Of a stretch of 64,000 nucleotides of DNA, positions 3,788-56,014 are shown one piece after another. This stretch comes from a virus (Duplodnaviria > Heunggongvirae > Uroviricota > Caudoviricetes), in the IMG/VR virus record IMGVR_UViG_2690315748_000001, positions 60,652-124,651 of that record. One strand, written 5' to 3'. Each line of letters begins with the position of its first letter. The stretch's first letter is position 1. The position numbers and the translations under genes were made by a program. Below the pieces are notes generated by a model. It was not told the origin of the DNA. It saw only the letters and a program-made list of their open reading frames with translations, and ran no database searches.

Positions 3788-6169
3788 ATGATTATTATTC
3801 GTAATTTGGTTCTTTTGCGTGGCGCAATGGGAGCAGGGAAATCATTTTTCATCAAAAAAAACAAGCTGGAACAGTTTGTACTGAGTGCAGATGCAATTCG
3901 CTTGCTTTTCCAAACGCCTGTAATGACTGAATCAGGCAAGTTTTCAATCAACTCAAGAAATGATGGGAAAGTGTGGAAGTTGTTGTTTGAACTTCTCGAA
4001 GAACGTATGAAACGTGGAGAGTTCACGATTATCGACGCTACACACGCTAAACAGGAAATGATTTCACAGTATAAGGATTTAGCACAGAAGTATCGTTATC
4101 GTGTTCATGTGGTTGATTTCTCTGACATTCCTCTGGAAACACTTTTGCTCCAGAACAGAATGAGAGACGAACACAAACATGTTCCTGAACATGTTATCAT
4201 GAATGTTCATGAACGTATGCAAACAGAGCATGTTCCAAAATGGGTTAATGTAATCAAGCCCGAAGAGTTTCATGATACAGTTCAGTTTGAACAAACGATT
4301 TACGAAAACTATGATTACATTCATCATTTTGGAGACATTCATGGAAGTTATGAAGCACTTATGGAGTACTTTGCGAAGACTGGACACGCTTTCTGCCAAG
4401 ATACAGGGTATCCGATTCTAAAGGAAAATGAACTGTATATCTTTGTAGGTGATATCACTGACAGAGGCACACAGAACGCAGAAGTATTAAATTTCTTTCT
4501 AAGTATCTACGCTCTTAAAAATGTTGTAATTCTCGAAGGAAATCATGAAATTCATTTATGGAACTGGGCGAATGACGAAGATGTTCGTAGCAAAGAGTTC
4601 ATCGACTTTACTCAACCACAACTTGAAAAGCCATTCAAGTATTTGATACCAGTTGATGTTGAATTTATTGATGAACTAGAAGAAAAATTGGATGAAGATA
4701 AATTGAAGGAATACAAGAAAGAAGTACGCCAATTCTATCGCAGACTTCGCCAAGTTGTTTGTTATAAGGCTCATGGTAAGGAAGTTGTTGTTACGCATGG
4801 TGGGCTTTCCAAAATGCCCGATAATCTTATGTATCTTGCCACAGAACAACTCATCAAAGGTGTAGGTGACTACGAGGTAGATATCGACAATGCTTGGGAC
4901 AACAATCTTCCATACATTTATGGTGAGTGCATTTACGCAACAGGTGGAGATGGGCTAAAAATTCCTTACGCTTTAGAAGTGTCAAAGAAAGTAGAGTTGT
5001 ATCAAATTCATGGTCATCGCAACATTTTCCGACTGCCTGTACAAGCAGGAAAGTACAGTTTTAACCTTGAAGGACAGGTTGAGTTCGGTGGTCATCTACG
5101 TGTGGTTGCATTAGATGCAGAGGGATTTCATGCGACAGAAGTAAAGAATAACAACTTCAAGATTCGCAAGGGTGTTGTTCCTAAACATATTGACGAGACA
5201 GATACGAGCATTGATCAGCTTATCGCATACATGTCTAATCATGAAATGATTGAAGAGAAGGACTTGGGTGGAAATATCTACTCATACAACTTTACTCGGA
5301 AGGCATTTAAGGATAAAGTTTGGGATGATATCAACGTGAAGGCAAGAGGTTTGTTTATTAACAAGAACACCAAAGAGATCGTTTCTCGATCATACAACAA
5401 GTTCTTCAATGTAAACGAACGCTCTTTCACGAAGATCAATGCGCTTGCCGACAATATGGTATTCCCTGTGCAAGTCTACGACAAACCGAACGGATACCTT
5501 GGAATTGTGGGATATGATTCTGAAAGCGATGAGCTAGTGTTTAGTTCGAAGTCGTCAACTGGTGGAGAATTTGCAGGATGGTTCAAAGAATTGTTTATCG
5601 GTCAGTTTGGAAGTGTTCTGGAAGCGATCAAACAAGAGTTAAAGGACGAAAATATCGCTCTGGTCTTTGAGGTAATCAAAGTGAAAGAAGACCCACACAT
5701 CATTGAATATGCAGAAGACAAATTGGTGCTACTTGATCTGGTGAAACGTACTGTGAAATATGAAAAACTTCCATATGATGATGTAGTTCAATTCGCAAGA
5801 TTCTATGGTTTAGAGCATAAAAATCTCATGCACACATTTGACAATTGGACTGACTTTTATATCTGGTATCGTGATGTGACAAATGACTTTAGTATTGATT
5901 ACAATGAAGGATTTGTTATTGAGGACTCTGCTGGATTCATGACAAAGATCAAGCTTCCTTTCTATAGTTTCTGGAAGCAATTTAGAAACATTAAGGATTT
6001 GTTTGCTAAACGTCACGAGCATACAGTAAAAGGTGGAAGTCTGTACACACCATTGCACAATAGAGTGTTCAAGTGGATGAAGGGTCAAGACCGTCAATGG
6101 TTGAAGAGAACTGATATCATTACTATTCGCAAGGCATACTTACAGGAGCAGTCCAAAGAACTGTTATAG
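3788..6169 (+). CDS. pnkp: Three-domain polynucleotide kinase / 2',3'-phosphoesterase / RNA-ligase-like nucleotidyltransferase (bacterial Pnkp-type RNA repair enzyme)
   Basis: N-term P-loop LRGAMGAGKSF (PNK-type kinase); central calcineurin-like metallophosphoesterase motifs GDIHG, GDITDRG, GNHE; C-term ligase-type motifs KARG (motif I, KxxG variant), EGFVIED (IV), MTKIKLP (V, KxK). Confidence 0.7.
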   Translation: MIIIRNLVLLRGAMGAGKSFFIKKNKLEQFVLSADAIRLLFQTPVMTESGKFSINSRNDGKVWKLLFELLEERMKRGEFTIIDATHAKQEMISQYKDLAQKYRYRVHVVDFSDIPLETLLLQNRMRDEHKHVPEHVIMNVHERMQTEHVPKWVNVIKPEEFHDTVQFEQTIYENYDYIHHFGDIHGSYEALMEYFAKTGHAFCQDTGYPILKENELYIFVGDITDRGTQNAEVLNFFLSIYALKNVVILEGNHEIHLWNWANDEDVRSKEFIDFTQPQLEKPFKYLIPVDVEFIDELEEKLDEDKLKEYKKEVRQFYRRLRQVVCYKAHGKEVVVTHGGLSKMPDNLMYLATEQLIKGVGDYEVDIDNAWDNNLPYIYGECIYATGGDGLKIPYALEVSKKVELYQIHGHRNIFRLPVQAGKYSFNLEGQVEFGGHLRVVALDAEGFHATEVKNNNFKIRKGVVPKHIDETDTSIDQLIAYMSNHEMIEEKDLGGNIYSYNFTRKAFKDKVWDDINVKARGLFINKNTKEIVSRSYNKFFNVNERSFTKINALADNMVFPVQVYDKPNGYLGIVGYDSESDELVFSSKSSTGGEFAGWFKELFIGQFGSVLEAIKQELKDENIALVFEVIKVKEDPHIIEYAEDKLVLLDLVKRTVKYEKLPYDDVVQFARFYGLEHKNLMHTFDNWTDFYIWYRDVTNDFSIDYNEGFVIEDSAGFMTKIKLPFYSFWKQFRNIKDLFAKRHEHTVKGGSLYTPLHNRVFKWMKGQDRQWLKRTDIITIRKAYLQEQSKELL

Positions 6170-6899: not shown

Positions 6900-7501
6900 A
6901 ATGTCAGTTCTGTGAACAGACAGTCCCTTACAAAGAAAGAGACACCTTAGCCAAAGAAGAGGTTAGGGTGTCCAACAAGGGAAAGACAGCGAACAAGTAC
7001 TGGCACAAAGAATGTTATCCGAAGGAATTGGCTAAACGAGAGTTTCTTTTGGATGAGCAAAAACAGAAGGATGAAATGTACGAAACAGTCAAGAAAATCT
7101 ACAGCATCAACTTCTCTCCCTCTAAAAGTTGGTGGGAGATGATCGCAGATTTGCGAGAGGGAACCAACAGATATCAGAAGTTCTGGAAAAAGCGTTATAA
7201 GCAGGGCGTACCATACAACGTTATCAGAGAAGCCTTTCTTTTAAGCGTGCAAGATATTGAATGGGCGCGAATGAGTAAGAACTTCAAGTCACTAGAACAG
7301 GAAATGCGCTATGGTTTGATGATTATGCAAGGCAAAGTGAATGATGCTTTCCGCAAAATGAAAACGCGAGAGCAACAATCCAAAATCAACGAAGCAATGG
7401 AACAAGTCCACATCGAAGACATGAAGGACAATCGGGAAGTGTCATTCAAGAAGAAACAACAAGAGAATAGAGACTACAGCTATCTTCTTGGAAATGACTA
7501 A
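6881..7501 (+). CDS. hypothetical protein with N-terminal Cys cluster (CQFCEQ ... HKECYPKE)
   Basis: ORF with AGGAGG RBS; possible zinc-binding N-terminus. Confidence 0.45.
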   Translation: MAERYVKCQFCEQTVPYKERDTLAKEEVRVSNKGKTANKYWHKECYPKELAKREFLLDEQKQKDEMYETVKKIYSINFSPSKSWWEMIADLREGTNRYQKFWKKRYKQGVPYNVIREAFLLSVQDIEWARMSKNFKSLEQEMRYGLMIMQGKVNDAFRKMKTREQQSKINEAMEQVHIEDMKDNREVSFKKKQQENRDYSYLLGND

Positions 7502-7513
7502 GGGGTTGATTGT

Positions 7514-9103
7514 TTGAGCATTAAGCAATTGTCTACAGAGAGTTACAACAAGGAAGCAATGTTAGTGGGTATCCTTTGGAATAAACCTGACTTGTTCGAT
7601 GTTTATAACGAAGAGAAGCTTAATAAAAAAACATTTGGTAATGTGATTTGGGCTTTTTATATGGGGATTGCACGAAAACTCCATAAGGATGGCTACATGG
7701 TATTTGACGACATTACTGTTCAAGGCGTTGTAACTGAGCTAAAGCTTAACGAAAAGTTTGAAAAGTATGGTGGGTATTCCATCATTGAAGAGCTGATGGA
7801 AGAAACGAAGAATGCAACAGACAACTTCGAGGGTTATTATGACGAAGTAAAAAAGTACGCATTACTTCGTGAGTATTATCAACTATTCGGTGATAAGGTT
7901 GTCGAGAAAAAAGAAAATTACGATTATAAAACATTAAGTCGTAATGCAATCTCAATGTACTGGAACGATAAATTAAATAGTGTTGACATTGAACACAACG
8001 AGACAAGCATTGTCGCTTACAACCTGTTGGCTAATCTCGACGATTTCATTAATAGGCTGGATATCAATCCTGACTTGGGTATGCCATTCTACAAGGGTAG
8101 AAAGCTTACAGACATTATCAATGGTTGGGCTTATGGGACGCTCAGTATCATCGGAGCATTTTCAGGTAATGGTAAATCGAGTTTTGTAATGGAAAAGCTG
8201 ATCATGTCCTGCATCAAGGAAAGTGAAAAGCTTGCGATTATTGCCAACGAGATGGACTTAGACCAGTATCAGAAGATGTTACTCATTACTGTCATGGGCG
8301 CGGAAATGTATGCCAAGTTTAAAGATTACTTTGAAGAAGATAAAATTCGATTTAATCGTAAATCTATCAATAAAGGTAATTTTACAGCAGCAGAAAAGAT
8401 GAAACTTCAAATGGCTGTCGATTGGGTCAAAGAGATGATCGGTGGAAACGACAGTCTGATTAAGCTGATTCCTCTTGAAGAGTACACGATGGATAATGTT
8501 GAGAAGGTTGTCAAGAAATTCGCTCGTCGTGGCTACAATCGTTGGATTGTTGATACAGCGAAACCATCTGAGGGTGGGCGTAAAGAGCGTTGGCAACAAT
8601 TCGTTGAGGACTTTGACAGACTGTACAAGCTGGCTCGCAAAGATGGTGGCGGTCTTAACTTGGCAATGATGGCGACAGTTCAACAAGCTGATAACTATGT
8701 CGGAAAATACTGGCTGAACGAACAGTGTCTTGCAGATGGTAAGAAGATTAAGAATGTTGCTGATCTTGTGTGGCATTTACGTCCTGTGCATCCACAGGAA
8801 TATCAAGGTGGAGCAAATGAGCTTGAAGTTATCAACTGGATTCGTAAGAGCGATGATATGTTCAACAACGATGAGGTAGATGATGATGTATCGTTCACAA
8901 CTGATGATGGCACTACGCTGATGAAGCAGAAGATCACATTAAAGCAAGGGAAAGTTTATTACTTACTATTCACCAGCAAGAATCGTCGCGGTATGACTAA
9001 CCTGACTGGTCTTGATGTTCTAGTGTTAGAGGTTGACTTTAACTCAAACAGATGGAAAGAGGTTGGCTGGTGTAAGAATGTTAAGCGTGACGATTTTATG
9101 TAG
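7514..9103 (+). CDS. DnaB-like replicative DNA helicase
   Basis: TTG start; Walker A GAFSGNGKSSF, RecA-like core, about 530 aa with N-terminal DnaB-like helical domain. Confidence 0.7.
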   Translation: MSIKQLSTESYNKEAMLVGILWNKPDLFDVYNEEKLNKKTFGNVIWAFYMGIARKLHKDGYMVFDDITVQGVVTELKLNEKFEKYGGYSIIEELMEETKNATDNFEGYYDEVKKYALLREYYQLFGDKVVEKKENYDYKTLSRNAISMYWNDKLNSVDIEHNETSIVAYNLLANLDDFINRLDINPDLGMPFYKGRKLTDIINGWAYGTLSIIGAFSGNGKSSFVMEKLIMSCIKESEKLAIIANEMDLDQYQKMLLITVMGAEMYAKFKDYFEEDKIRFNRKSINKGNFTAAEKMKLQMAVDWVKEMIGGNDSLIKLIPLEEYTMDNVEKVVKKFARRGYNRWIVDTAKPSEGGRKERWQQFVEDFDRLYKLARKDGGGLNLAMMATVQQADNYVGKYWLNEQCLADGKKIKNVADLVWHLRPVHPQEYQGGANELEVINWIRKSDDMFNNDEVDDDVSFTTDDGTTLMKQKITLKQGKVYYLLFTSKNRRGMTNLTGLDVLVLEVDFNSNRWKEVGWCKNVKRDDFM

Positions 9104-20302: not shown

Positions 20303-21073
20303 ATGATAATTGAGAGAAGTATACTTGTGAAGGCACTGGTTGGCTCACATAACTACAATCTTGCAACGCCAGAGTCAGACAAAGACTACAAGATATTCAC
20401 CATGCCAACGTTCGATGATCTTTACAGAGGTAAAATGTACTCGAAGGCAGATGTTGGATTAGAGTTCGATTTCGATGTGCATGACATTAGGAAAATGGTT
20501 GCTCTGTTCTGGAAAGCAAACATCAACTTCCTTGAAGTCCTCTACTCGAAAGAAAATCACATCTATGATAAAAACATTAAAGAAATATACAATCTGCGGA
20601 AAGATATAGTGAGAATGAATCTACCTTACTTATACAATGCATGTAGAGGAATGCACTTCGAAAAGATGAAGCGTCTGGATAACCCAACAGAAGGAACAGC
20701 ACACTTGATTGAGAAGTATGGCTATAATACCAAAGAAGCATTACATGCTTACAGGGTTCTCGATTTTATTACTCGATTTGCATATACAGACTTCGAGGAT
20801 TTCGAATGGGCAATGACTTACGATGAAAACCTTAGAGAAAGAATGCTTGAAATCAAAAATGGAGAATACCCAAAAGTAACGTTCCAAATGTTGATTCGTC
20901 AAAAGATGAGTCAATTCGAAAAGTTTGACCAAGCATACTATAGTCAAAAGCCCAATGAAGAATTAAAACAGCACATTGATTTAATTATATACAATATGAT
21001 TAAGGAAAATTTTCAAGGAACTAAAGAAAGTACTTTGGGAGGAAATGAAGATGCTCAAACAATTACGCAGTAA
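20303..21073 (+). CDS. Polymerase-beta-superfamily minimal nucleotidyltransferase-domain protein
   Basis: GSHNYNLATPESDKDY matches the hG[GS]x9-13Dh[DE]h NTase signature; 256 aa. Confidence 0.4.
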   Translation: MIIERSILVKALVGSHNYNLATPESDKDYKIFTMPTFDDLYRGKMYSKADVGLEFDFDVHDIRKMVALFWKANINFLEVLYSKENHIYDKNIKEIYNLRKDIVRMNLPYLYNACRGMHFEKMKRLDNPTEGTAHLIEKYGYNTKEALHAYRVLDFITRFAYTDFEDFEWAMTYDENLRERMLEIKNGEYPKVTFQMLIRQKMSQFEKFDQAYYSQKPNEELKQHIDLIIYNMIKENFQGTKESTLGGNEDAQTITQ

Positions 21074-22466
21074 CCCAATTATGTTGACTGACGCATACAA
21101 CTTGTCGCACCAAAACTTGAAGGTTAATACAGATTGGGAAATATCCCATATGTACAATCGTTCCAAGTCAATGATTCTGTTCGGACTTCTTGAAATTATT
21201 AACAACATCTTGGAGACACGAATCAACATGTCAATGATTGACGAAGCTGAATTTCATGCAAATCGTATGGGAATTACATTCCCTAGAAAACTTTGGGAGC
21301 GAGTAGTCAAGGAATGTGGTGGTTATATTCCCTTGGAGATACAAGCTCTACCAGAAGGTACGTACTGCCCTGTAGGAACACCTTTCGCTCAAATTCGTAA
21401 CACAGTTAAGGGTTTTGGTGAAATGGTTACATGGTTCGAGGGCGAATTGATGCACGCTTATTTCCCATCAACCGCTGCTACACAAGCACTTCGTATGCGG
21501 CGTTATCTGGAACAAAAGAAGCGTCAATATGGTTATGATGACAGTTTTATGCTTCGTTTGCACAGCTTTGGATTTCGAGGTCATCGCAGCCTTGAAGACG
21601 CATATTGGGCAGGGATTTCGTGGAATTTATTCTTGTATGGTACAGACGACTTCCACACAGCATTTCACACTCCAAGTGCGAATCTCGTAAGTATCGCAGC
21701 TACTGCACACAAGGTAACACAGCAATTTGACAATGAGTATGAGGGTTATAGACATGTGATCAAGGCAACAGCAGATGTAGGGGAGAAGATCGTAGCAATC
21801 GTAATTGACACATATGATGCATATCGTTTCCTTGATGAATACTTAATTCCATTGGCTAAATACGCCGCATCGCTTGGAGTTCATATGGTAATTCGTCCAG
21901 ACAGTGGCGACACATGGGAACAGGTTGTGATTGCATACAAGAACATTTCTCGTCACTTCATTCCGATCACGAATGTTACTGCTATCATTGGTGAAAGCAT
22001 GGACTTTGAAAATGTGAAAAAGGCAGATGCTTATTTTGAGCAACATGGCGTTCCATTGAACTTCGTATCATATGGAGTTGGTGGAGGATTCTACAACTAT
22101 GCAAATCGAGATACGCTTGGATGGGCAATGAAAACAGCTTACTCTAATGGTAAAGATCGCATGAAATTCTCTGAGAATCCAATCAAACGTAGTATTCCTG
22201 GGGTTGTTGAACTTTATCGCAATGAATATGGTGATTTAGTTGTAGGCAAAGAGAATAGTGTCAAAGAAGGAAAACTCTACGAGACGATCTACTTCCATGA
22301 TGCTGTAGCTGATACGCCGATCATGAAGCAATATTCCGATGAACATTGGTTGTCTGTTCAGGCGACAGCTCTTTCGGCAAACACAGAGCAAGCAAATATC
22401 TATCTCAGCGATGAAGTTCGTACAGAGATTGGCGAGTTCCAAAGACGATACAGAAATCGGGTGTAA
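21051..22466 (+). CDS. nadV: Nicotinamide phosphoribosyltransferase (NadV/Nampt)
   Basis: NPIMLTDAYNLSH N-terminus, FGFRGHRS, IRPDSGD motifs of the type II PRTase/NadV family; start 21051 preferred over 21045 for RBS spacing. Confidence 0.75.
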   Translation: MLKQLRSNPIMLTDAYNLSHQNLKVNTDWEISHMYNRSKSMILFGLLEIINNILETRINMSMIDEAEFHANRMGITFPRKLWERVVKECGGYIPLEIQALPEGTYCPVGTPFAQIRNTVKGFGEMVTWFEGELMHAYFPSTAATQALRMRRYLEQKKRQYGYDDSFMLRLHSFGFRGHRSLEDAYWAGISWNLFLYGTDDFHTAFHTPSANLVSIAATAHKVTQQFDNEYEGYRHVIKATADVGEKIVAIVIDTYDAYRFLDEYLIPLAKYAASLGVHMVIRPDSGDTWEQVVIAYKNISRHFIPITNVTAIIGESMDFENVKKADAYFEQHGVPLNFVSYGVGGGFYNYANRDTLGWAMKTAYSNGKDRMKFSENPIKRSIPGVVELYRNEYGDLVVGKENSVKEGKLYETIYFHDAVADTPIMKQYSDEHWLSVQATALSANTEQANIYLSDEVRTEIGEFQRRYRNRV

Positions 22467-51205: not shown

Positions 51206-51418
51206 ATGAGCAATAAGATACTTTCATGTAATTTAAAGAATATTTTACGAGAAAAGGGTTTAGATCAGAAAGATCTATCTCAAATGACTGGAGTCAGAGA
51301 AGCTACAATTTCTGAAATGGTCAGAAATAAAAACAAGATGTTTTCTCGACAAGTCCTTGAAAAAATAATGAATGCCTTGGACATAGACGATATTGGAAAA
51401 CTGCTAGAGATTAAATGA
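51206..51418 (+). CDS. XRE/Cro-C1-family HTH transcriptional regulator
   Basis: LKNILREKGLDQKDLSQMTGVREATISEMVRNKN canonical HTH_3. Confidence 0.65.
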   Translation: MSNKILSCNLKNILREKGLDQKDLSQMTGVREATISEMVRNKNKMFSRQVLEKIMNALDIDDIGKLLEIK

Positions 51419-51454
51419 TTGAAAATGACGTTTTGAACATGATATACTAAAAAA

Positions 51455-51645
51455 GAGCAGGGATGCGCAAACATCCCCACTCTTTTACAACAGCCGCCTT
51501 GAAGAGCGGTCAGCAGTAGGCTTGGTTCAGAAATAGACCGTTACCTTTGGATGAGGCGGTCAGCCGTGTTCTGGTTCAACGAAATAGACCGTTTACCTTT
51601 GCACAGGGCGGTCTATTTCTTTTTGTTTTTTTGTAAAAACTTGTC
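51455..51645 (+). ncRNA. Candidate structured RNA / repeat-containing leader ending in terminator
   Basis: Promoter TTGAAA-18-TATACT at 51419; two ~49-nt tandem units (GCGGTCAGC..CTGGTTCA..AAATAGACCGTT.ACCTTTG); terminal hairpin gaaatagaccg/cggtctatttc + TTTTTGTTTTTTT. Confidence 0.35.
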
Positions 51646-51668
51646 ACCAAATATACTTAACTAAGTAA

Positions 51669-51697
51669 TTGACCGCTGCCTAAATATGTTATAGTAT
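51669..51697 (+). promoter_or_regulatory. Promoter TTGACC-17-TAGTAT upstream of 51729 gene
   Basis: Read directly. Confidence 0.5.
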
Positions 51698-51728
51698 GGT
51701 TAAAAATGTAATCAGGAGGTAAAGCTAC

Positions 51729-52610
51729 ATGTTCAAATCAGCAATTTTGGAATCAGTAAGCGACATAAACCTTTTGACAGACATATTAAAAGAAGAGTTT
51801 TCTAACGAAAACTGGGAATCTATGGTGCATATTGCGGACAAGCTTTATACGTCGATTAAAGGATTGTACGAAGAAAACCAACTTCGGCAAGCAAAAGAAC
51901 AGCCGAGAGTTGATACTGGAAGACTTAAAAGAAGTGTCGCTTTCTATTTCGGGTTTTCGATGGTAATGAAAGGTATTGCATTACAGAAGATGGGTGATTA
52001 CGAAGGAACCCGTGACTGCATTGAAAAATACTCTGAGTTGGGATGGATGTACGGGTTGGGCGAGGAAGGTCAAGCTGATGTGGCTCATTTCAAGATGCTT
52101 GCACGAGCAAATACATACGTCCTTGACTTACTAGAGGGAAAAATGGATGTGCTCCCTGAGTACGTTCAATTCATACACAATGCCGAGGAAGTAGAGTTGC
52201 TGCCGGGAATTATAACAATTCTGGAATCAGCTATAAAAAATAATCATAATGTTGATTGGGCATTAGAAGAATTTGAAATTCAGCTAAACGCTCTGGACGG
52301 AGAGTACGAAGAGGAAGCCAATATACGTTATTATATAGACCATCTATATCTTATGGCACTATATAACTTTAAAAATGGGAGATATTTCAATGCACTAAAC
52401 ATTACACTTAATGGTTTGCGAATGTCTGATAAACTTAAAGATGATACAGGGTATAAAAAAATCAATGCATTATTTGTTACATTTAGTACCCATGCAACTA
52501 AAGAGCAGCTAAATGAATATAATGCATTGAACAAAACTATCCTTGAAAGGGTGTTAAAAGATGAAAAAGGCATTAGGTTTGATGGTAGTAGCTTTGTTTC
52601 TGTTCGGTAG
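51729..52610 (+). CDS. TPR-like all-helical protein (Rap-like receptor candidate, no HTH)
   Basis: 293 aa, repeated helical hairpins rich in Y/L/A/N; 3' end overlapped by a signal-peptide pro-peptide gene. Confidence 0.45.
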   Translation: MFKSAILESVSDINLLTDILKEEFSNENWESMVHIADKLYTSIKGLYEENQLRQAKEQPRVDTGRLKRSVAFYFGFSMVMKGIALQKMGDYEGTRDCIEKYSELGWMYGLGEEGQADVAHFKMLARANTYVLDLLEGKMDVLPEYVQFIHNAEEVELLPGIITILESAIKNNHNVDWALEEFEIQLNALDGEYEEEANIRYYIDHLYLMALYNFKNGRYFNALNITLNGLRMSDKLKDDTGYKKINALFVTFSTHATKEQLNEYNALNKTILERVLKDEKGIRFDGSSFVSVR

Positions 52611-52698
52611 CGTGAGCGGTATCGGAGGGTTCGCCCCGAACAATCATGGAGCGAATAGCTTCCAACTCCAACCTTATAATCATGGAGCGAATAGCTAA
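52561..52698 (+). CDS. Secreted pre-pro-peptide (45 aa) with tandem NHGANS repeats (Phr-like candidate), not in ORF track
   Basis: Signal peptide MKKALGLMVVALFLFGSVSG; C-terminal PNNHGANSFQLQPYNHGANS; 19-nt exact DNA duplication aatcatggagcgaatagct; overlaps 3' end of TPR gene in another frame. Confidence 0.5.
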   Translation: MKKALGLMVVALFLFGSVSGIGGFAPNNHGANSFQLQPYNHGANS

Positions 52699-52863
52699 TT
52701 TCAATCATCTCTTGAAGCCCCTTCATAGTGGAAGGGGTTTTTATTTTGGTAAAATAGTTCCAAAGAATCATTTTCCAAAATTCTTATATTTTTATACAGA
52801 CATTTCCTTTTATTGTGGTATAATGGCTAAGTATTCCACATATTATAGAAAAGGAAGTGCTCG

Positions 52864-53791: not shown

Positions 53792-53829
53792 AAAAGGATT
53801 GCCTGAGCTTCATACTAGGCAATCCTTTT
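53792..53829 (+). terminator. Terminator hairpin aaaaggattgcct-loop-aggcaatcctttt
   Basis: Read directly; related hairpins at 56243 and 56571. Confidence 0.55.
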
Positions 53830-53857
53830 GCCATTATTCAGCAGGAGGATTTTAACT

Positions 53858-54313
53858 GTGAAAAGCACTGGAATGACTCGCCCATTAGACAACCTTGGAA
53901 GAATAGTAATTCCAAAAGAAATGAGAGAAACGATGGGGATTGACATCGGTGATCCATTAGAAATATTTGTAGACAAAGATTCTGGAATGCTGGCTTTTAG
54001 ACAATATATTGGAGTCGCCTGTAAAACTTGTGGTTCGATTGATAGATTATTATATTTTAAAGATAGTTTTATTTGCTCTGATTGTGCATACGATTTGAAG
54101 GAAGGTAAAATTTCTCCAAAAATATCAAATGACAAAATATCTAAAGTTGAAAAACCGAAGAGACGCATTTATCAGAAGCCTGAAATAATGCTTAAAAAAC
54201 TCAACGATTTAATGCTGGAACACCCATCGTATACGCAAAAGCAATACGCAGAAATATTGGGTGTATCTCAATGTCGTGTAAGTCAACTAAAAGGTAAATT
54301 AAGAGAGCAATAA
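53858..54313 (+). CDS. AbrB/MazE/SpoVT-type swapped-hairpin DNA-binding domain fused to a zinc ribbon and C-terminal HTH
   Basis: GTG start after AGGAGG; KSTGMTRPLDNLGRIVIPKEMRETMGIDIGDPLEI (AbrB-N signature); CKTCGS...CSDC; YTQKQYAEILGVSQCRVSQLKGK HTH. Confidence 0.55.
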   Translation: MKSTGMTRPLDNLGRIVIPKEMRETMGIDIGDPLEIFVDKDSGMLAFRQYIGVACKTCGSIDRLLYFKDSFICSDCAYDLKEGKISPKISNDKISKVEKPKRRIYQKPEIMLKKLNDLMLEHPSYTQKQYAEILGVSQCRVSQLKGKLREQ

Positions 54314-54598
54314 TAATAAAAGACTAACTATCCTTGTAGTTAGTCTTTTATTATTATTTTATAAATTCTTTTTTAGAATATCTTCAAACGAATTGTAGCT
54401 TTTTCTTCCGATACTTTTAATCATAAAATCCTCGAAAAACTATCCTAAAGGTATCTAAAATACATATATGAAATGTATATGATTTTATTCCAAAAGATGG
54501 TACAATCAAGAAGGGTATTCTACTACTTGTTTCAGAACTACATAATAATTTTAACTATGCATCGTATTGTTAGTCTACGTTGAAAGGGTGGTTTATTG

Positions 54599-56014
54599 AT
54601 GAAAATTGCACCCACGATTCGAGCAGAATTAGACAGATTTCTACAACAAGAAAGCTTAACATTATCGCAATTTGGACAAATCGCAGGGATGAATAGGGGA
54701 GCAGTAAGCGCTATTGTAACAGGGAATAAGCCTTTGTCTGTTAACCAGCTTGACTTAATTACTAAGGCTATGGGTTTGCCAGAGGGTCACTTTTACGACT
54801 TGTTCGCGGAAAATTACATCATAGATCACCCTCCAAATATGAAACGAATTGAGCCATTTTTGTTTCGCTGTGCAGAGTTGGACAAGTTAGATGCGATCCG
54901 TCGAGTGGTGGGAGCCATCATGGACAATCTAATGTATTCGCCCAAACTATTTGAAATTGCAGAAGGATTGTTGGCGCAGAAAAAGCTAGAAGCTGCATTG
55001 ATACTCTATGAAGGGGTAGCCGAAGCGGAGAGATATCAACATTCTGAACGTTTAGCCATCTGTCAATATCGGATTTTCAAAATCCAAATTGGAGATGATC
55101 AAAACCGTAATCTTAGTGCAGCTACGATTTTTGAAGTTTTTGTTGAGCGCCTTAATGAAATAGACCAACTTGACGCATTGAAGGATTTAGCAAACGTATA
55201 CAGGTCTTTACGTAAATGGGATAAGGTTGAGGAAATCGCTAAAAAAATGAGAGCTAAGGCGGAAATCCAATACACTTTGAAACATCAACAGAACAGTCGA
55301 GAACGTGATGAATCTACTAAAAGTCTAACTCGTCCCTTGTTTGTATACATCACCTATGCTGATCTATTGTGTGCTAGTGTCTGCGAAGCCAAAGGCGATT
55401 ATCAACAAGCTCTACAATATACTTACGCCTACGCCAATTTAGATTGGGTCAAAGAGACTGACGAAGATACCCAATACTGGATCGATTTGTACAAAACTTG
55501 GGCAGAAGGTAATACTCACGTTAATAAGCTCCTGTCTGGAGATACCAGTGTGCTAACGGAGTATGTTGAATACATTGCTGTTTCAGCCAATAAAGCAGAT
55601 AAAGAAATGGTCACCAAACTGTTAAATGTTTTGATGGCGGCTAATCGTTATAAGCTGGATGTAGATGACATACTTCGGCGCTTTGAAATTGATTCTTTTA
55701 CTCAGCAGCAACAGCCGTCAACGGATATGTATACGAAACAAGTTATACCAGAGCAATCCGCACGTTTGAGTTATGAATTAGCTTATTACCATCTACATCG
55801 AGGTTCATACGATGATGGTTTTAAATACTTGATGTATTCGTTGGTAAGTTACCATATACTAAACAACGAGAGCTATTATATAAACTGTATAGGGCTGTTT
55901 GAGCATTTCCGTACTCATGCGGTTCCTGAGACATTGAGCGAGTTCTCAAAAATAATTGAAAAGGTGTGGTTAGATAATGTTGAAAAAGGTTGCTTTTCTG
56001 ATCATCGCGACTAG
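54599..56014 (+). CDS. RRNPP-family (AimR/NprR/PlcR-like) HTH plus TPR peptide-sensing transcriptional regulator
   Basis: N-terminal XRE-type HTH LSQFGQIAGMNRGAVSAIVTGNKPLS; about 400-aa helical/TPR-like C-terminus; small secreted peptide gene overlaps its 3' end. Confidence 0.55.
   Translation: MKIAPTIRAELDRFLQQESLTLSQFGQIAGMNRGAVSAIVTGNKPLSVNQLDLITKAMGLPEGHFYDLFAENYIIDHPPNMKRIEPFLFRCAELDKLDAIRRVVGAIMDNLMYSPKLFEIAEGLLAQKKLEAALILYEGVAEAERYQHSERLAICQYRIFKIQIGDDQNRNLSAATIFEVFVERLNEIDQLDALKDLANVYRSLRKWDKVEEIAKKMRAKAEIQYTLKHQQNSRERDESTKSLTRPLFVYITYADLLCASVCEAKGDYQQALQYTYAYANLDWVKETDEDTQYWIDLYKTWAEGNTHVNKLLSGDTSVLTEYVEYIAVSANKADKEMVTKLLNVLMAANRYKLDVDDILRRFEIDSFTQQQQPSTDMYTKQVIPEQSARLSYELAYYHLHRGSYDDGFKYLMYSLVSYHILNNESYYINCIGLFEHFRTHAVPETLSEFSKIIEKVWLDNVEKGCFSDHRD

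Follow-up and report, generated by a model that had tools for sequence, protein, structure and literature searches.

A predicted small RNA gene with a duplicated segment

The stretch of DNA analysed here (64,000 nt of the viral record IMGVR_UViG_2690315748_000001; hereafter the window) holds, between a gene for a 70-aa XRE protein that adjoins it on the upstream side (51206-51418; Pfam HTH_26/HTH_3) and a plus-strand gene for a 293-aa TPR protein downstream (51729-52610), a short structured region from which a small RNA (sRNA) is predicted to be transcribed. By gene content the window belongs to a large phage, with a DNA polymerase, a DnaB-like helicase, a RecJ-like exonuclease and an endolysin as well as aerobic and anaerobic ribonucleotide reductases, a DNA ligase and an RNA ligase/kinase; it covers around half of a phage genome of ~140 kb, and the host clade is the Paenibacillus polymyxa group. 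We argue below that the region is almost certainly a homologue of the SR4 family of type I antitoxin RNAs that stands without its toxin.

The signals expected of an independent transcription unit, which a preliminary description had pointed out, are present. A consensus scan predicts a sigma-A-type promoter on the plus strand (51419..51448), with TTGAAA at 51419-51424, an 18-nt spacer and TATACT at 51443-51448, matching the consensus at 10 of 12 positions and extended by a TG at 51440-51441; the predicted start lies near 51455. The 5' hairpin proposed at this point (H1; 51451..51486, plus strand) is recovered both as an inverted repeat (I3) and in the minimum free energy (MFE) fold, its two 15-nt arms (51451-51465 and 51472-51486) being 87% complementary. 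It is followed by a second, short stem-loop, (G)CCGC-cttgaaga-GCGG(T) (H2; 51493..51510, plus strand), the stem of which is found in every relative described below and the four core pairs of which do not vary in any of 40 sequences. On its 3' side H2 has GCGGTC, which forms the left boundary of the first of two direct repeats.

These repeats, two units of ~50 nt and a partial third, were found within 51419-51632 much as they had been proposed: GCGGTCAGC.GT occurs at 51506 and 51556, GAAATAGACCGTT at 51530 and 51581, and TTACCTTTG...GGCGGTC at 51541 and 51593. As delimited by repeats D1, D3 and D5, unit 1 (51506..51555, plus strand) consists of GCGGTCAGC, a variable linker, GAAATAGACCG (51530-51540) and the loop TTACCTTTGGATGAG, and unit 2 (51556..51607, plus strand) of GCGGTCAGC, a linker, GAAATAGACCG (51581-51591) and the loop TTTACCTTTGCACAGG. 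Comparison of the repeats identifies the partial third unit, GCGGTCTATTTC (51608-51619, plus strand), as the 3' arm of the terminator. Tandem Repeats Finder reports no array in the region, because the units are ~80% alike and differ by indels.

The strong terminator of the preliminary description is formed by GAAATAGACCG of unit 2 pairing with CGGTCTATTTC (51609-51619), followed by a T-run (51620-51632). This predicted intrinsic terminator (51581..51632, plus strand; inverted repeats I2 and I4, and the fold) combines an 11-bp stem with a 17-nt loop that contains an inner CCT/AGG stem, and it is owing to the length of the loop that a simple terminator scan missed it. The 3' arm is complementary to unit 1 (12/12) as well as to unit 2 (13/14), unit 1 being itself a terminator-like module with its 3' arm shortened to CGGTC (51557-51561). 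The duplicated segment comprises the linker, the 5' arm of the terminator and the terminator loop.

As a whole, the 183-nt RNA is more stably folded than shuffled versions of it (z = -3.56), and its elements would delimit a discrete transcript of ~175-180 nt, running from ~51455 to ~51630. Searched against Rfam, the region yields no match at gathering scores and only chance-level matches at E up to 10; the whole window likewise has none at gathering scores. One coding alternative, a 37-aa plus-strand open reading frame (ORF) at 51551-51664, was dismissed, since no ribosome-binding site precedes it and the toxin frame of the relatives runs antisense to it.

Relatives are convergent with genes for holin-like toxins

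With scans of IMG/VR, first for the repeat core and afterwards for the terminator, we collected ~25 Paenibacillus prophage or chromosomal loci, each with a single-unit RNA made up of a promoter, H1, H2 (CCGC...GCGG), a variable linker and a terminator of the pattern AAATAGACCG...CGGTCTATTT. The terminator stem is kept in all of them, an invariance that is due in part to the way in which they were collected. An nhmmer profile of 22 single-unit sRNAs matches the window twice, at 51443-51561 (profile positions 2-122, E=1e-24) and again at 51555-51625 (profile positions 64-134, E=1e-17), the latter match corresponding to unit 2. That single-unit relatives match twice means that the duplication is not a matter of chance. 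A covariance model (R1), built from 12 Paenibacillus sRNAs and structured by hand to include H1, H2 and the terminator, aligns to 51445-51626 with 134.5 bits (E=2.8e-31), unit 1 being taken as an insertion of ~50 nt. This is the first sighting of an sRNA family that is not yet in Rfam.

Structure and covariance in related sequences had been suggested as a check on the region, and they bear it out: H1, H2 and the terminator are all present, the fold beats shuffles and the stems covary. In an alignment of 46 distinct sequences that was guided by, and is therefore fitted to, the covariance model, 90% of cells are paired, compared to 42-52% in slid controls, and both partners vary in 23 of 36 pairs, among them every one of the 15 in H1; the observed values are not reached by any shuffle. 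RNAalifold, applied to a plain MAFFT alignment, finds the terminator only, because H1 is misaligned between subfamilies. A hairpin at the position of H1 is present in 24 of 24 family members, with at least seven unrelated stem sequences.

What characterises the complete loci is the gene that faces the RNA. Directly downstream and convergent on the opposite strand, the ~25 single-unit loci carry a hydrophobic ORF of 29-39 aa with a Shine-Dalgarno sequence (for example MPVEVKDALTLMMMFGTLIVALIGLIVTIVIALNQNKKK), the TAG stop of which lies inside the sRNA terminator stem. The 3' untranslated region (UTR) of the toxin message is the complement of the whole sRNA, and the complement of H1, with TTTTTT behind it, is the toxin mRNA terminator. 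Peptides of the relatives match Pfam Hol_Tox with 49.1 and 37.9 bits (cutoff 23.3), and NCBI labels such proteins 'putative holin-like toxin' in P. polymyxa, P. jamilae, P. peoriae, P. terrae, P. kribbensis and P. brasilensis; the query of the large protein search was the 39-aa toxin with three extra upstream residues. Fozo et al. (2010; PMC2887945) treat 'holin-like toxins' as synonymous with the type I toxins of the TxpA family. In layout the complete loci correspond to those type I systems of B. subtilis in which toxin mRNA and antisense RNA overlap at their 3' ends (PMC6562991). Comparison of gene order between the window and toxin-bearing viral loci revealed no shared neighbours, so that kinship of the toxin-bearing prophages to the window phage could not be shown.

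Several loci deserve mention in their own right. In Paenibacillus albidus (L039, 3900-6500) four complete toxin-sRNA modules stand together with two in which the toxin ORF has collapsed (…MVFFK*) and the sRNA is intact; this array lies directly downstream of a TPR homologue and comes with a partial duplicate of the 3' end of that gene. Elsewhere the AAATAGACCG...CGGTCTATTT terminator occurs by itself behind unrelated genes (L074, 1277-1351; L095, 167-206; L087, 13598-13650), with neither H1 and H2 nor a toxin, and in this stand-alone form the module behaves as a reusable terminator cassette. Brevibacillus phage SecTim467 (L001) has weak matches to the sRNA profile at 5640-5760 and 5993-6118 (E=2.4e-5), comprising an H1-like hairpin and a GAAATAGAC motif, ~1 kb downstream of the HTH-TPR gene of that phage and the small ORF that goes with it; a toxin ORF could not be made out clearly at this place.

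The family is SR4-like

Two matches, one on either strand, connect these loci to the bsrG/SR4 pair of the B. subtilis prophage SPbeta. The Rfam family for the bsrG toxin mRNA (BsrG, RF01412) aligns end to end with the toxin strand of L076, L126, L064 and L061, with scores of 51.6, 34.4, 31.6 and 30.6 bits (E=1e-9 to 6e-4) that stay below the gathering score of 55. A stop-codon stem, AAAUAGACC...GGUCUAUU, is conserved in this alignment and common even to B. subtilis bsrG, and the toxin-mRNA terminator of the relatives is placed on the complement of H1. Model R1, for its part, matches SPbeta opposite bsrG, across the end of the bsrG ORF (locus positions 704-840), and does so weakly (23.3 bits, E ~1e-5 in 1.3 kb). 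SR4 overlaps the 3' end of bsrG, and pairing between the two starts at the terminator loop of SR4 (L4) and loop L3 of bsrG RNA (PMC6562991). Considered jointly, the RF01412 matches and the R1 match opposite bsrG indicate that the family is SR4-like, with homology to the characterised pair that is present but weak.

The likeness to SR4 goes beyond these scores. SR4 is the antitoxin RNA of a type I toxin-antitoxin system (PMC6562991) and, like the window RNA, is found on a large phage of the SPbeta type; it has a multi-hairpin architecture ending in a terminator, the loop of which is the recognition loop; and bsrG/SR4 resembles the complete relatives in that the sRNA is convergent with the gene for a small hydrophobic toxin, the 3' ends in the relatives overlapping over the whole sRNA. 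The window RNA differs in having no toxin gene, in the doubling of the recognition segment as two alleles and in the replacement of its promoter. Of the readings considered in the preliminary description, a stand-alone sRNA of ~180-190 nt with its own predicted promoter and terminator is the one that agrees with this homology to SR4-like antitoxins.

The toxin mRNAs show a further point of contact with the Rfam structure of BsrG, in which a 5' UTR motif (GGGCGGTC; for example L126, 1463-1475) pairs with GACCGCCC at the stop codon (L126, 1613-1622). A hairpin in which the Shine-Dalgarno sequence is sequestered follows directly on the 5' UTR motif. GGCGGTC, the same motif, also occurs in the sRNA, with three copies in the window RNA, so that the sRNA would compete with the toxin 5' UTR for the stop-codon site. 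Such competition fits the refolding around the ribosome-binding site that SR4 induces.

Toxin, promoter and putative recognition segment are altered in the window

The window departs from its relatives in three respects. First, there is no convergent toxin ORF. What remains of it on the minus strand (51613..51636) are the last seven codons, LQKNKKK, and the TAG stop (51613-51615) inside the terminator stem; translated from stop to stop, the remnant reads LSIFGDKFLQKNKKK, as opposed to the full 29-39 aa of the relatives, and a tblastn search of the entire 64 kb with toxins of the relatives returned this 7-codon fragment and no toxin homologue. Given that the ORF is present in ~25 relatives and missing here, the window RNA is an antitoxin homologue and not a complete system. 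About 14 nt past the T-run of the sRNA a different module begins, an independent cassette outside the RNA (51645..52741, plus strand) that consists of a promoter (TTGACC 51669-51674 / TAGTAT 51692-51697, by promoter scan), the TPR gene, an ORF for a secreted peptide (45 aa, 52561-52698) that overlaps the end of the TPR gene, and a terminator (52714-52741, by terminator scan). The left end of this cassette is the point at which the toxin gene was replaced.

Second, the promoter is new. In the relatives the native sRNA promoter has a TG-extended TAAAAT ~25 nt upstream of a conserved ATATACTAAAAAAGAG. Homology of the window to the relatives starts at ~51441, and a new -35 element and TG turn the conserved TATACT into a -10 element. 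As single-unit relatives use another promoter further upstream, the TTGAAA/TATACT promoter is specific to the toxin-less version.

Third, the two units are copies of different alleles. Unit 1 is identical to L073 over 32-35 nt in its loop region, the longest exact match to that sRNA gene measuring 35 nt, and agrees with L097 at 32 of 33 positions over the loop region. Unit 2 is identical to L062 at 50 of 52 positions; taken together with the 3' tail, the stretches that it shares without mismatch are 44 nt long with L078, 37 nt with L062 and 36 nt with L127. Judged from these alignments, the duplicated piece is a chimera of two natural alleles. The units are joined at GCGGTC, a motif also found in the 3' side of H2 and in the 3' arm of the terminator, and recombination between adjacent or allelic loci would provide a simple origin; tandem arrays of toxin-sRNA loci do exist (L039, L081). 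Encoded among phage genes, toxin-less and made up of 2.2 units of different alleles, the RNA has the composition of a mosaic RNA antitoxin, with perfect complementarity to toxin 3' regions over 35 nt (L073) and 44 nt (L078).

What the duplicated piece might specify can be gleaned from allelic variation in the host clade. We used two toxin variants to fetch 20 loci from the P. polymyxa group (L126-L145), 18 of which have a complete Hol_Tox/sRNA module at a fixed chromosomal site beside an amylase gene (positions 1440-1760). The 14 distinct alleles at this site differ almost exclusively in the linker that leads from H2 to the terminator and in the terminator loop; promoter, 5' UTR, toxin ORF, H1 and H2 are almost invariant. 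Since loop and linker are the variable part of the locus, and since it is the terminator loop of SR4 that starts pairing, we infer that the window RNA holds two different specificity modules.

A second toxin-less, two-unit RNA

A toxin-less RNA with two units is found once more, on the closest relative, L098, a 143-kb ENA contig that also encodes a 98% identical homologue of the 293-aa TPR protein and that has no XRE gene. The right junction is the same as in the window and the 130 bp downstream of it are 100% identical. Upstream, the promoter has an identical -35 element, spacing and TG, a -10 element that reads TATAAT, and five substitutions in 30 nt in total. H1 differs by compensatory changes (GG/CC to AA/TT), and the alleles are others: unit 1 is of the L083 type and the loop of unit 2 of the L088/L061 type. 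Both units and the terminator are intact in the two genomes, in a region that is far more diverged than its 100%-identical flank. The shared toxin-less layout indicates that the toxin was lost once, in a common ancestor, and that recognition parts were exchanged later while the architecture remained intact. Retention of this architecture fits maintenance by selection.

Additional searches did not extend this pair. A scan for the two-unit pattern returned nothing from IMG/VR and 15 hits from JGI metagenomes, all of them unrelated repeats or CRISPR-like arrays; a looser scan for a unit followed by GCGGTCRGC returned five unrelated loci; a scan for the window-specific promoter gave no matches; and a scan for H2 plus terminator uncovered no new loci.

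A trans-acting antitoxin or a relic?

How, then, should the region be interpreted? On balance we favour the view that it is an SR4-like antitoxin sRNA gene from which the toxin has been deleted, in which the promoter has been replaced, and which carries two alleles of the specificity segment and acts in trans. Under this scenario the RNA would be made from ~51455 to ~51630 and would pair with Hol_Tox toxin mRNAs of matching allele classes, encoded by related loci of the host chromosome or of prophages that share the cell. As in SR4, pairing would be initiated at terminator-type loops and then extend into a long duplex, resulting in a block to translation and/or RNase III-mediated decay of the toxin mRNA, and two recognition modules would allow two classes of toxin mRNA to be covered. 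The gain for the phage might be that no toxin is released when host transcription collapses, as in abortive infection; alternatively, the phage might be freed from addiction to a resident prophage or element. Potential targets abound, with Hol_Tox toxins common in the host clade and one of them at a conserved P. polymyxa chromosomal site.

The individual parts of this scenario do not carry equal weight. That the RNA is a working trans-acting antitoxin, rather than a relic, we regard as close to an even call, falling just on the doubtful side. Imagine further that the RNA served as a bivalent weapon of counter-defence or anti-addiction, so that one transcript silenced two allele classes of Hol_Tox mRNA belonging to the host or to rival SPbeta-like prophages, the hypervariability of the cassette among host strains being the other side of an arms race. 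We offer this as a tentative proposal that is rather less likely to be right than wrong.

A number of observations count against a functional trans-acting RNA. Promoter and terminator of the sRNA are consensus matches only. The hairpin of unit 1 keeps a stem of just 5 bp and is absent from the MFE fold. The units match prophage-borne alleles, and neither agrees with the common chromosomal allele of P. polymyxa in the hypervariable segment. Covariation in H1 may reflect its role as toxin-mRNA terminator in complete loci and not a role in the sRNA: given that H1 doubles as a terminator on the opposite strand, its covariation does not tell which strand was selected. The two-unit form is known from two genomes only, and the differences between the window and L098 could arise by gene conversion with resident loci, without selection. 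The bacterial chromosome of P. albidus (L039) harbours toxin-dead copies that retain the sRNA, implying that such relics arise readily. Finally, the window is about half of a ~140-kb phage, so a toxin could lie outside it.

The last two points lead to the principal alternatives. The stronger one is that the region is a relic in decay. Deletion, together with insertion of the TPR-peptide cassette, would have removed the toxin genes from one type I locus or from two neighbouring ones, and the RNA gene left behind would play no part as an antitoxin; at most, its hairpins would end transcription from the upstream operon ahead of the next promoter. Homology does break at both ends, at ~51441 and ~51637, the native promoter has been lost, two-unit forms are rare, and, besides the P. 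albidus copies, there are the loci where the terminator module is reused on its own (L074 and L095). If nothing but decay were at work, however, it is not obvious why a good new promoter should sit exactly before H1 and should have been kept, and improved to TATAAT, in L098 despite changes at 5 of 30 positions. Nor would we expect H1 pairing to be kept by compensatory changes between the two phages, or units and terminator to survive whole in the two genomes, in a region so much more diverged than its flank. We consider decay alone an unlikely explanation, albeit one to be taken seriously.

A toxin beyond the 64 kb would make the region one half of a complete system, the sRNA acting as a trans-encoded antitoxin for the phage's own toxin or toxins. 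The window is only part of a genome of ~140 kb (the L098 contig has 143 kb), complete modules are found in related large prophages, and trans-encoded type I antitoxins are known, such as RalA for RalR (PMC4041452). Yet all of the ~25 complete loci are cis-overlapping pairs, and the 7-codon stub marks a cognate gene that was deleted in place, with no toxin in the 64 kb, all of which renders a distant partner improbable.

Very little speaks for a cis-acting leader, be it a riboswitch or an attenuator, in which the units would pair alternatively with the terminator 3' arm and thereby govern read-through into the TPR gene. Alternative folds exist, in so far as the terminator 3' arm can pair with either unit, and the preliminary description had raised the idea on similar grounds. 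It is difficult to reconcile, however, with the TPR gene having its own promoter past the terminator and with the occurrence of that promoter and gene without the RNA in P. brasilensis (L002), L003 and L119-L125; there is no matching Rfam family, and relatives of the RNA face a toxin gene on the opposite strand, not a downstream gene. When the region was compared by blastn-short to 58 Paenibacillus loci encoding TPR homologues, only chance matches resulted, from which it follows that the RNA does not travel with the TPR gene. We regard a leader function as highly implausible.

Equally remote is the notion that the direct repeats are DNA operators for the XRE or TPR regulators, also floated in the preliminary description, or a ToxI-like repeat RNA of type III that neutralises the downstream protein: an XRE gene does lie immediately upstream of the sRNA both here and in L096 (the proteins being 40% identical), and the succession of repeats, terminator and gene is superficially that of a type III locus, but L098 has the RNA and no XRE gene, the units belong to a conserved, folded transcript with covarying stems, and neither a nuclease nor a toxin domain is found in the downstream protein (0 Pfam families), the gene of which has its own promoter and occurs elsewhere without the repeats. 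Membership in a type III system with a downstream toxin of the ToxN, CptN or TenpN kind was rejected accordingly, the 293-aa protein being a helical-repeat paralogue of the 472-aa HTH-TPR protein encoded at 54596-56014 (25% identity, E=1e-19).

Neighbouring genes

Homologues of the 293-aa TPR protein are found at 62-80% identity in the P. polymyxa group. The 45-aa ORF downstream of it (52561-52698, plus strand), MKKALGLMVVALFLFGSVSG...NNHGANSFQLQPYNHGANS, combines a signal peptide with two copies of NHGANS behind it, and every TPR homologue examined, even at ~50% identity, is followed by an equivalent ORF with one to three copies of NHG[A/M]N[S/H]. The two genes look like a receptor and secreted-peptide communication cassette of the Rap-Phr or RNPP type, with a receptor that has no DNA-binding domain. 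Further downstream, an AbrB/MazE-type + HTH protein of 161 aa (53828-54313, plus strand) is followed by the 472-aa HTH + TPR protein (54596-56014, plus strand), which is a full-length paralogue of the 293-aa protein, 25% identical over the repeat region; in Brevibacillus phage SecTim467 the homologue of the 472-aa protein is likewise followed by a small overlapping ORF. This part of the genome may be the lysis-lysogeny signalling region of the phage. Searches of PDB sequences with the TPR family and with the 472-aa protein produced no useful match.

The XRE gene has a counterpart on L096, an unrelated viral contig that has retained the toxin: a 73-aa XRE protein, 40% identical to that of the window, is encoded directly upstream of the sRNA and in the same orientation (7200-8120), and both loci have ATGATAT(A/C)(C/A)T at the -10 element of the sRNA. 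The association of XRE gene and sRNA may be a recurrent one, though L098 has no XRE gene.

Elsewhere in the window there are a gene of the nicotinamide phosphoribosyltransferase type (21045-22466, plus strand) and one for a large fusion of RNA ligase and polynucleotide kinase-phosphatase (3788-6169, plus strand). Genes of these types have been tied elsewhere to phage counter-defence, namely to the restoration of NAD+ and to tRNA repair. A tRNA search of the window found none, and a DNA search of the GenBank phage collection, both with the region and with the surrounding 24 kb, found no match.

Comparison with known systems and implications

By class of mechanism, txpA/RatA and bsrE/SR5 of B. 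subtilis resemble the family as well. In these systems, too, the duplex that an antisense RNA forms with the 3' end of the toxin mRNA is cut by RNase III; they reside on prophage-like elements, and their toxins fall into the 'holin-like' TxpA group (PMC2887945). They differ from the window RNA in being complete cis pairs with a single recognition region; no Rfam family matched the region, in a search that was not directed at RatA or SR5 in particular.

The closest functional precedent is the pseudo-ToxI of phage PhiTE, a phage-borne, toxin-less repeat RNA antitoxin that lets the phage evade toxin-mediated abortive infection and that changes as its repeats expand and as it recombines with the host locus, which yields mosaic repeats (Blower et al. 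2012; PMC3475682). The window RNA shares with it that it is phage-borne, toxin-less, repeated and mosaic. The two families are unrelated, however: ToxI binds the ToxN protein as a pseudoknot, whereas the window RNA would base-pair with mRNA. Moreover, counter-defence has been demonstrated for PhiTE and is here only inferred.

Another parallel is provided by anti-addiction modules, chromosomal antitoxins that neutralise the toxins of mobile elements, as in the case of chromosomal ccd and the ccd of the F plasmid. Here, as perhaps in the window, an antitoxin is kept not for the sake of its own toxin but to cancel the addiction or killing module of another element. The cases on record concern protein antitoxins that belong to complete type II systems; a toxin-less RNA counterpart with two specificities on a phage is not known to have been described, and our literature searches turned up none.

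Type I toxin-antitoxin systems are abundant on prophages and their role is a matter of debate, with addiction, abortive infection and stress response all under discussion. Even if the region were nothing more than a relic, it would still document an undescribed family of SR4-like sRNAs that is found across Paenibacillus and absent from Rfam, and the toxin partners of which are annotated only as 'putative holin-like toxin'. Should the proposed function hold, the implications would be broader. It would explain why the terminator loop and linker are the sole fast-evolving parts of the locus, and it would furnish a natural example of modular, recombinable specificity in antisense RNAs. It would also mean that type I systems can be countered by RNA mimicry, which is so far known only for type III ToxIN, and an antitoxin-only phage RNA with a new promoter and two different recognition modules would constitute direct evidence that type I systems take part in conflicts between phage and host or between phages.

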